This document shows, piece by piece, positions 1,515 to 2,372 of a stretch of DNA of 4,010 bases. The DNA lies in IMG/VR virus record IMGVR_UViG_2671180637_000010, positions 1 to 4,010 of that record; one strand, given 5' to 3'. The DNA comes from a virus (Duplodnaviria > Heunggongvirae > Uroviricota > Caudoviricetes). Numbering within the stretch: position 1 is the stretch's first letter; each line of letters opens with the position of its first letter. Made by a program: the position numbers and the translations under genes. The notes below the pieces were generated by a model that was not told the DNA's origin, did no database searches, and saw nothing but the letters and a program-made list of their open reading frames with translations.

Positions 1515-2372
1515 TTATCGTTTATTTCTTTGATGTTTCTTTGCAGACTCAGCTTGAGTGTTTCCATACCTGCGTTTACCGCTATTGTTTTTTCCTCTAG
1601 GCTTGCCTTTTTTTCGATCTTCCCACCAGTCAGGTGCCGGGTCTGGCTCAACATGTAAAGCATCGGCAAGTCCTGATATCAAGCTGTATGACTGAACTCC
1701 ATCAATGTGCTCTGACAGTGATGGGGTAACATTCTGTCTTAGTGGATCAAGAATAAAATCAATACCTTTAATTCTGGCGTGTTTGGCGGCAGGCACAAAG
1801 TCTGAGTCCCCAGCAACAAGGACAATTACATCAACAAGTTTTTCATAAGCTAAAGTCGTGATATCCATCCCTAGCTTGATATCAACTTGTTTTTGTTTGA
1901 TGTCATAGTAAAAATCATCATTTGTCAGTTCATCCCATTTTTTCGTTCCTTTCATCAGAGCATCAAGGGAGAATGTAGTTAGTTGCCATCGCTTATTATC
2001 AACAAGATTCCCTAATCTTAAGGCTGTTTTTCGAGTTTTTCTTAACTCTTCATGCAGCTCCGTTCTCAGAATATATGATTTTTCGAGTTTGAAATTCTTG
2101 CGACCAGGCGTCTTATTGCCAGGCTCAGGAAGTGGAAGGCGTGTTTGAATGTCGAGTGGTGGACAGTCATAGAAGTAAATTCTATAAAGCTCAAGCGGTT
2201 CCCTACGTTCTTGTGATTGACGTTTTCCATTAAGATGGGAAAGAACCATTGACCATATTACTTTCATTATGCATTGCGCAGTCAGTTCATGCTCGGCGAA
2301 GTGTTTACGATGCGTAGCATGAACACGCTGCATGAAAAAACCCGCATCAATTAAAATTGCTGCTTTCTTCAT
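1515..2372 (-). CDS. NYN/LabA-like PIN-fold nuclease-domain protein (285 aa) with a Lys/Arg-rich C-terminal tail, in the position of lambda rexA-rexB
   Basis: Track ORF. N-terminus MKKAAILIDAGFF (Asp9 after a hydrophobic strand) and the block QVDIKLGMDITTLAYEKLVDVIVLVAGDSDFVPAAKHARIKGIDFIL (Asp164, Asp170, Asp189, Asp191) match the NYN/LabA signature as I know it. It lies between cI and the terminator/OL, same strand as cI. Confidence 0.8.
   Translation of the reverse strand: MKKAAILIDAGFFMQRVHATHRKHFAEHELTAQCIMKVIWSMVLSHLNGKRQSQERREPLELYRIYFYDCPPLDIQTRLPLPEPGNKTPGRKNFKLEKSYILRTELHEELRKTRKTALRLGNLVDNKRWQLTTFSLDALMKGTKKWDELTNDDFYYDIKQKQVDIKLGMDITTLAYEKLVDVIVLVAGDSDFVPAAKHARIKGIDFILDPLRQNVTPSLSEHIDGVQSYSLISGLADALHVEPDPAPDWWEDRKKGKPRGKNNSGKRRYGNTQAESAKKHQRNKR

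Follow-up and report, generated by a model that had tools for sequence, protein, structure and literature searches.

The stretch of viral DNA analyzed here (the window, 4,010 nt, positions 1 to 4,010 of IMG/VR record IMGVR_UViG_2671180637_000010) is a lambda-type immunity region in which the slot held by rexA and rexB in phage lambda contains a gene for a NYN-domain protein, together with its own promoter-like site and a structured leader. The lambda rex slot is the textbook site of prophage-encoded exclusion. In the window it holds an open reading frame (ORF) of 285 aa on the minus strand (1515..2372), whose upstream neighbor is a cI repressor gene of the lambda immunity type (2500..3213, minus strand). 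By BLASTN, homology to lambda stops at window position 1507, where the rexB stop and the start of the Timm terminator lie, and restarts at 2496, 4 nt before the cI stop; the gap between these points therefore defines a 988-bp cassette (1508..2495, minus strand) that replaces rexB-rexA and the cI-rexA spacer exactly. An earlier reading made from the letters of the window and a list of its ORFs (the sequence-only reading) had placed the ORF in the rexA-rexB slot, as the BLASTN comparison confirms. It had also taken the ORF to fill the whole interval between cI and the terminator, which holds up to the terminator side, but the 127 bp next to cI carry the promoter-like site and the leader. Timm itself is lambda-derived and lies just past the NYN stop codon (1476..1507, minus strand; terminator scan), with its stem at 1507..1486 followed by a T-rich tail, inside a lambda-homologous block (1169-1507) of 89% identity. 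The GenBank entries of phages HK544 and mEp332 mark the equivalent site as Timm, and the slot is filled by rexAB in lambda, by other genes in HK544 and mEp332, and by the NYN gene in the window. Variability of the rex slot among lambda-immunity phages is thus already on record in those two entries.

The 285-aa protein is built from a NYN core with insertions (about residues 1-232), a conserved PxWW motif (247-250), and a disordered Lys/Arg-rich tail (252-285). It scores 36.8 bits against the Pfam NYN profile (PF01936; gathering score 24.2), with only residues 158-205 (48 residues) aligned, and the same profile is matched by 43 of 43 aligned homologues. The five acidic residues that the sequence-only reading had picked out as expected of a PIN-fold nuclease (D9, D164, D170, D189, and D191) are invariant in these 43 sequences, as are H46, D69, H222, and D224. 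The fold is of the PIN-like alpha/beta type, as had been predicted, with MARF1 NYN and VPA0982 as the best structural matches, and is also related to FEN and T5 exonuclease. A search by sequence for a solved structure gave no match, and the NYN equivalog model TIGR00288 scored 29.6 bits against a cut-off of 178.45. Alignment with RexA and RexB revealed no homology (BLASTP E values of at least 2), as had been anticipated, and we rejected the identity of the protein as a divergent RexA or RexB. In PADLOC, matches were weak and confined to 42-46 residues around the catalytic motif (HEC-09, E=2e-4; ‘NYN’ PDLC01154, E=1.4e-3), which led us to reject membership in a PADLOC system and agrees with the earlier impression that no described defense system is present. 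Identity with DefensePredictor DS-3 was likewise rejected (unrelated sequence, hhalign probability 0.5%). Profile and fold place the protein in the NYN domain family, as a predicted metal-dependent nuclease; it falls outside the TIGR00288 equivalog, the Rex proteins, and all PADLOC systems.

The 127-bp interval between cI and the ATG holds, in order on the minus strand, the promoter-like site, a hairpin, a run of seven U residues (U7), the sequence GGGA, and the start codon. The promoter-like site is of the sigma-70 type (2453..2481, minus strand), with a -35 element TTGACG (2481..2476), a 17-nt spacer, and a -10 element TAGATT (2458..2453), and the predicted transcription start falls a few nucleotides before the hairpin. 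The positions of both elements are kept in the leader alignments of divergent homologues. The hairpin is a conserved, interrupted structure of 53 nt (2390..2442, minus strand; RNAalifold), in which three helices of 7, 5, and 5 bp are separated by two internal loops and capped by a 13-nt apical loop. Right after it comes the U7 tract (2382..2388, minus strand), completing the shape of an intrinsic terminator, then GGGA (2381..2378, minus strand) and the ATG at 2372. Since the U-tract ends 9 nt from the ATG, the gene can be transcribed only through the hairpin, and low basal expression is expected. This arrangement speaks against the co-expression with cI from pRM that the sequence-only reading had implied, as a terminator-shaped hairpin and U7 stand between cI and the ORF. 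With its own promoter-like site (2481..2453), a terminator (1507..1486), and the variable occupancy of a fixed slot, the cassette has the features by which phage morons are recognized. Its organization identifies it as a predicted autonomous moron and not a passenger of the cI operon, because the hairpin and U7 separate cI from the ORF and because the module also occurs in repressor-free slots.

The -35 hexamer is overlain by a palindrome, GTTGACGGCACAGTCAAC, of the form GTTGAC-N6-GTCAAC (2465..2482, minus strand; sequence and minimum free energy fold). The pattern TTGAC-N6-9-GTCAA recurs in Edwardsiella-, Pseudomonas-, and Aeromonas-type leaders, above what the -35 element alone explains, and could be an operator for a dimeric protein or a small hairpin in read-through RNA.

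A leader was present upstream of all homologues examined. The same promoter, hairpin, and U-tract elements can be aligned upstream of the homologues in Brenneria, Pantoea, Edwardsiella, Pseudomonas syringae, Halomonas, and Proteus, and an RNAalifold alignment of 21 distinct proteobacterial leaders yields 17 base pairs in three helices, 14 of them with compensatory double changes. Paired cells make up 95.8% of this alignment; 500 shuffles of the columns never reached that value, and pairing fell to 26-44% when the partners were slid by 1 to 3 columns. G-U cells number 10 on the gene strand, against a single A-C, an excess that argues for an RNA with the sense of the gene. An element working at the level of DNA was rejected, as G-U is tolerated on the sense strand only (10 vs 1), the U-tract lies on the strand of the gene, and the related staphylococcal Teg147 (see below) is detected as RNA. 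A covariance model built from the 21-leader alignment (R1) was run on 87 sources (584 kb) and placed the motif just 5′ of, and on the same strand as, the NYN start in 70 loci, which are every proteobacterial NYN locus with upstream sequence available; nothing comparable was found elsewhere in the 584 kb, and each locus carried one leader copy, with no second copies found by R1. The window hairpin scores 95.6 bits with this model. In relatives whose ORFs share 76-88% DNA identity, the hairpin is identical at 53 of 53 positions, and selection on the hairpin is therefore stronger than on synonymous sites. Pairing of the leader loop with the gene’s own translation start region was considered and rejected, since across 16 lineages the duplex energies were no better than those of shuffled loops. 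Taken as comparative evidence, these results identify the leader as a real, selected RNA that is obligatorily linked to the NYN gene. The ‘single-gene’ effector of the sequence-only reading needs to be revised to this extent, as the ORF always travels with its own promoter-like site and conserved structured leader.

An exact-pattern scan of IMG/VR returned 36 copies of the hairpin, followed 24-29 nt later by a NYN start in 34. The two exceptions are a deletion remnant and a fusion to a tRNA-Arg(UCU) gene. In the former (L115, IMGVR_UViG_2974671149_000001), the hairpin is followed by only the last 32 NYN codons, an internal deletion that kept the RNA. In the latter (L139 3555-3699), the exact hairpin and U-tract are joined to the tRNA gene in place of the NYN ORF, with two membrane-protein-like ORFs and a lysozyme-like ORF downstream and a 207-aa ORF, possibly a Q-type gene, upstream (our own reading of unsearched ORFs). 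Here, the leader was either reused as a terminator or left as a recombination scar.

Comparable leaders precede more distant homologues. Those of gut-metagenome phages (about 42% protein identity) have their own conserved two-helix leader followed by a U-tract, with 95% of cells paired and compensatory changes at 5 pairs. A promoter-like site, a long hairpin, and a U-tract were also found before homologues on Campylobacter, Thermus, Xanthomonas, and Aeromonas plasmids and in Dorea, Burkholderia phiE202, and Moraxella Mcat4 phages; the U-tract is conserved in the homologue leaders examined and weakest in that of the Campylobacter plasmid. Against Rfam, the window leader has no match at E <= 1, the TEG147 family (RF03535) included, and a scan of ten related loci gave none at E <= 0.1. 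Assignment of the window leader to a known RNA family was thus rejected, TEG147 being matched only by the Dorea phage and staphylococcal leaders. The Dorea leader matches RF03535 over the full model at 36 bits, below the gathering score of 56.1. When representative genomes were scanned with the TEG147 consensus pattern, four staphylococcal loci emerged, whose leaders score 72-86 bits against that same gathering score. In Staphylococcus borealis, an intact NYN homologue, 41% identical to the window protein and beginning MKIAVLVDGGYY, comes after the RNA, and the module adjoins guaA and integrase fragments. In S. intermedius, the NYN homologue matches in two separate pieces, while S. schweitzeri and S. 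simulans have no NYN match downstream of the RNA, and the downstream sequence in S. schweitzeri resembles a decayed remnant. Modules are intact in S. borealis and mostly so in S. intermedius. The RNA is part of a broader family, with TEG147 as its staphylococcal branch and an enterobacterial branch that RF03535 misses.

Teg147 is listed as a bona fide 60-nt small RNA (sRNA) expressed in S. aureus HG003, where its GC content suggests a horizontal origin (PMC5826253). Its genomic position in HG003 is 386294-386353 (PMC5826253), and further sites lie at L153 8120-8179 and L154 698-757. The internal loop of TEG147 forms a strong sarcin-ricin motif, classically a site of protein binding (PMC13085918). 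S. aureus Teg147 (RF03535) looks like the leader left behind by a decayed NYN module at a guaA-proximal genomic-island edge, and its 60-nt product gives indirect experimental support for transcription of such leaders from their own promoter with termination at the hairpin. The TEG147 literature we found states neither a function nor a NYN link, and nothing in the literature found ties NYN genes to an RNA partner.

The NYN family is mobile-element cargo, and its pairing with a leader RNA recurs on phages and plasmids from several bacterial phyla, Shiga-toxin phages among them. A protein search returned 7035 matches among 90%-identity cluster representatives, and relatives are encoded on at least 574 viral contigs. 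A survey for homologues beside cI-like repressors, which the sequence-only reading had proposed, showed that no fewer than 33 of the 79 viral loci have a co-oriented S24-type repressor gene ending 128-403 bp upstream; with <60% identity between families, the repressors represent at least 7 of them. Brenneria and one further prophage share this repressor-NYN arrangement. In Halomonas, P. syringae, and phiE202, the module is integrase-adjacent at the prophage end; in Edwardsiella, it is flanked by the genes for the Q antiterminator and the holin and lies on the opposite strand; in Proteus, it adjoins glmS; and it is also carried on conjugative plasmids. On the Thermus thermophilus megaplasmid pTthSNM1-7b (L110 12519-13232), the NYN homologue comes after a helicase-related gene and overlaps by 4 nt the start of a 1331-aa N6 DNA methylase, with an 1838-aa DEAD/DEAH helicase, a 3′-5′ exonuclease, and a Cmr (type III-B CRISPR) locus in the vicinity, and appears to be embedded in a defense island. 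Such contexts are typical of lysogen-expressed or defense cargo. Several elements with a NYN module also carry P1/P7-type immunity RNAs (C4 antisense RNA with its a1/b1 targets, and isrK), with scores close to or above the Rfam thresholds (L012 10900-11101; L150 3270-3470; L108 658-750), at about 100-300 bp from the end of the NYN gene in L150 and about 4 kb away in L012.

Among 5426 complete E. coli genomes, 74 hold the full gene, all those listed at >=99.8% identity, and about 200 more, mostly O157:H7, hold the first 118 codons only, as in prophage Sp1 of strain Sakai (NC_002695.2 301465-301812). In two such remnant copies on viral contigs (L086 and L087), the leader RNA is intact and is followed by an integrase-like ORF. 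Full-length, unannotated copies occur in 48 records of Stx2a-converting phages (LC616031-LC616078), 44 identical to the window protein and 4 at 99.6%, and E. coli O121:H19 strain FWSEC0006 has an identical chromosomal copy. Annotation of the gene is inconsistent. RefSeq, through its annotation pipeline PGAP, often splits the ORF, giving one part as a pseudogene labeled ‘incomplete PIN domain/hypothetical’ and the other as a short ‘NYN domain-containing protein’. The DNA of copies annotated in this way (L002 4116-4973; L015 1616-2473) is intact and encodes the same 285-aa protein. We rejected the pseudogene status suggested by the ‘incomplete’ flags, since the two chromosomal copies and the one phage copy that were checked are unbroken and show no difference from the window ORF; the split annotation probably goes back to the O157:H7-type N-terminal remnant. 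Database entries are in many cases ‘partial’ or begin at Met14 (272 aa), and with that start the catalytic Asp9 is lost. Clones made from mis-split or Met14 annotations, or without the leader, could give misleading negatives in defense screens.

Several known systems share parts of this organization. With other NYN nucleases (PF01936, including the LabA-like VPA0982 and MARF1 NYN), the window protein has in common the PIN-like fold and an Asp set placed as in the Pfam profile within residues 158-205. It differs from them in its long core insertions, C-terminal PxWW, and basic tail, and in that a dedicated structured leader invariably stands before the window-family gene. Type III toxin-antitoxin (TA) loci (ToxIN, CptIN, TenpIN, and AvcID) show the same order of promoter, noncoding RNA, intrinsic terminator, and same-strand toxin gene, and in the NYN module a promoter-like site, a noncoding RNA, a terminator, and a candidate toxin gene likewise form one unit. 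Type III loci are carried on mobile elements and have abortive-infection roles, and the NYN module is also found on mobile elements. Unlike their antitoxins, which consist of tandem repeats that the toxin processes, the NYN leader is present as a single copy per locus (R1) and is itself the terminator hairpin, while the protein is a NYN domain and not a ToxN/AbiQ-like protein or a deaminase, and its neutralization by RNA is putative. AbiF (Abi_2 family) with RCd22, from a C. difficile prophage, is likewise a prophage-borne single nuclease-type protein with a conserved upstream noncoding RNA, where RCd22 lowers AbiF expression in cis and neutralizes AbiF in trans. Here the fold is HEPN-like Abi_2 in contrast to NYN, and the RNA family differs, with no match to Rfam abiF in the window or the related loci scanned. 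TEG147 (Teg147/srn_0960) has the same position, orientation, and U-tract as the window leader, whereas the latter has three helices and is without the AGUA/GAA sarcin-ricin loop. Lambda RexA/RexB occupy the same slot between cI and Timm/OL, and the NYN product is presumably present in the lysogen, as they are. They comprise a DNA-binding sensor and a membrane protein, in contrast to one soluble predicted nuclease with its own promoter-like site and leader. PADLOC HEC-09 is another NYN-domain defense candidate, whose match to the window protein covers 46 residues, and DefensePredictor DS-3 is a validated one-protein defense system with a split PIN domain and no antitoxin, unrelated in sequence. 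The locus is best described as an RNA-associated nuclease module, a prophage moron in the rex slot.

As to what the module does, the reading we favor, at a rough probability of 45%, is that of an autonomous moron whose product is a nuclease toxin or abortive-infection effector under RNA control. Its proposed parts are a constitutive sigma-70 promoter, a leader RNA that doubles as the intrinsic terminator, and a NYN (PIN-like) nuclease that depends on metal. Most of the transcripts started at the promoter would stop at the hairpin and U-tract, as would any that read through from cI; the outcome would be plentiful leader RNA of about 65 nt and very little nuclease mRNA. The nuclease would be a latent toxin restrained by the leader, which would attenuate transcription in cis and probably also bind the nuclease in trans, in the manner of the RNA antitoxins ToxI, AvcI, and RCd22. 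Another phage infecting the cell would lift this restraint, for instance by shutting off host transcription, by changing termination, or because RNA decays. Once released, the nuclease would cut RNA, thereby aborting the infection, and the element itself would be stabilized by the same logic. For this module, then, we infer toxicity, an RNA substrate, RNA-protein binding, a trigger, and a defense phenotype. The conserved loops and internal loops, together with the sarcin-ricin motif of TEG147, are needless in a plain terminator and point to specific recognition, for which the co-inherited NYN protein is the most economical candidate. In keeping with a defense role, DefensePredictor scores E. 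coli ‘NYN domain-containing protein’ entries as predicted defense genes. Several observations weigh against the favored reading: there is no phenotype on record for the window protein; HEC-09, a further NYN candidate, did not protect against the phages it was tested on; an E. coli clone, ‘NYND’ (WP_001399740.1), which may lie outside this family or lack the leader or the true start, failed validation in DefensePredictor; and DS-3, the validated one-protein split-PIN system, is unrelated to the window protein.

The same parts could be put together differently. The hairpin may act only in cis, throttling transcription and insulating the gene from cI read-through, with a low, steady level of NYN protein directly degrading phage RNA or DNA. 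The canonical intrinsic-terminator shape of the hairpin and U7, placed between promoter and ATG, fits such an attenuator, as do the single leader copy per locus with no repeats and an apical loop without complementarity to its own translation start region, and the kinship of the fold with FEN and T5 exonuclease is compatible with a nuclease that attacks directly. A plain terminator, however, needs no invariant loops or internal loops, yet the 53-nt element is more conserved than the ORF, related versions keep the sarcin-ricin motif, and the orphan leader Teg147 is kept and expressed where the nuclease gene appears to have decayed. We regard the cis-only attenuator as possible, with the odds clearly against it. 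Rather unlikely, in our view, is a module for addiction (post-segregational killing) that stabilizes prophages, plasmids, and islands and has no dedicated anti-phage role. It would account for the presence on conjugative plasmids and at island and prophage edges, the layout like that of type III TA loci, and the phiE202 copy that adjoins a BrnT/BrnA pair; its commonest position, however, is the lysogen-expressed slot behind a repressor, where rexAB-type exclusion genes sit, the Thermus copy is embedded in an apparent defense island, and TA and abortive-infection roles are not mutually exclusive.

The recurrence of the module directly behind at least 7 repressor families raises the thought that the nuclease serves the phage’s own life cycle, processing phage or host RNA and thereby tuning the lysis-lysogeny switch or induction instead of acting on other phages, as proposed for RexA, which is reported to bias the lambda switch. 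Repressor-free copies by glmS in Proteus and guaA in staphylococci, on plasmids, and in the Thermus defense island make this improbable. The least credible of the explanations, one to which we assign almost no weight, is that of a decaying or non-functional passenger gene. The 118-codon remnants in some 200 E. coli genomes, mostly in O157:H7 prophage Sp1, the remnants that alone persist in S. schweitzeri and S. simulans, and the frequent RefSeq annotation as split would suit it; the ORFs annotated as split are nevertheless intact and identical to that of the window, the full gene persists in 74 complete E. coli genomes (those listed at >=99.8% identity), and the catalytic residues are invariant across a family with 7035 matches among cluster representatives.

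A more specific form of RNA control would make the leader a trans-acting RNA antitoxin that serves as an uncleavable decoy of the nuclease’s real target. The AGUAC/GAAC bulged-G (sarcin-ricin) motif, known from the sarcin-ricin loop of 23S rRNA, is present in TEG147 and in many of the short-form leaders, and some PIN-domain toxins (VapC20 and VapC26) cleave that loop. We consider the decoy a doubtful proposition. If true, it would define a new type III-like abortive-infection class spread across bacterial phyla on phages, plasmids, and islands, Stx2a phages included, and would give an origin for the orphan S. aureus sRNA Teg147. An RNA antitoxin of any kind would extend type III-like control to a new nuclease fold. 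In eukaryotes, the NYN/PIN-like RNases KHNYN, N4BP1, and Regnase-1 act in antiviral defense, and a bacterial counterpart would be of comparative interest. In any event, the textbook exclusion slot of lambda here holds a different module, one that is widespread and unstudied.

The rest of the window has the layout of a lambda immunity region. On the minus strand lie ral (166..345) and an N homologue (616..948), and on the plus strand cro (3314..3514), followed by cII and the start of O. The operators OL1-OL3 (1264..1324, identified by identity to the lambda operators) form the left boundary of the immunity region, with pL at 1290..1262 (-35 at 1290..1285) and pR at 3261..3289. Phage ev099 is 99.3% identical to the window over the covered 80%, and its record labels the window ORF ‘NYN domain-containing protein’. 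The region at 441-691 is without sieB and holds a substitute of about 250 bp for the lambda sieB region, in which a 45-aa minus-strand ORF (470..607) has a match in PHROG 1871, a family of unknown function. With rexAB and sieB both replaced, the phage is therefore without either classical lambda exclusion locus. Another 45-aa ORF (MTMNNEALKEMIAKLLEDARR...; 950-1087, minus strand), situated between nutL boxB (1192-1206) and the start of N in a segment (960-1168) substituted for lambda sequence, matches PHROG 32391, also of unknown function (E=3.7e-34).

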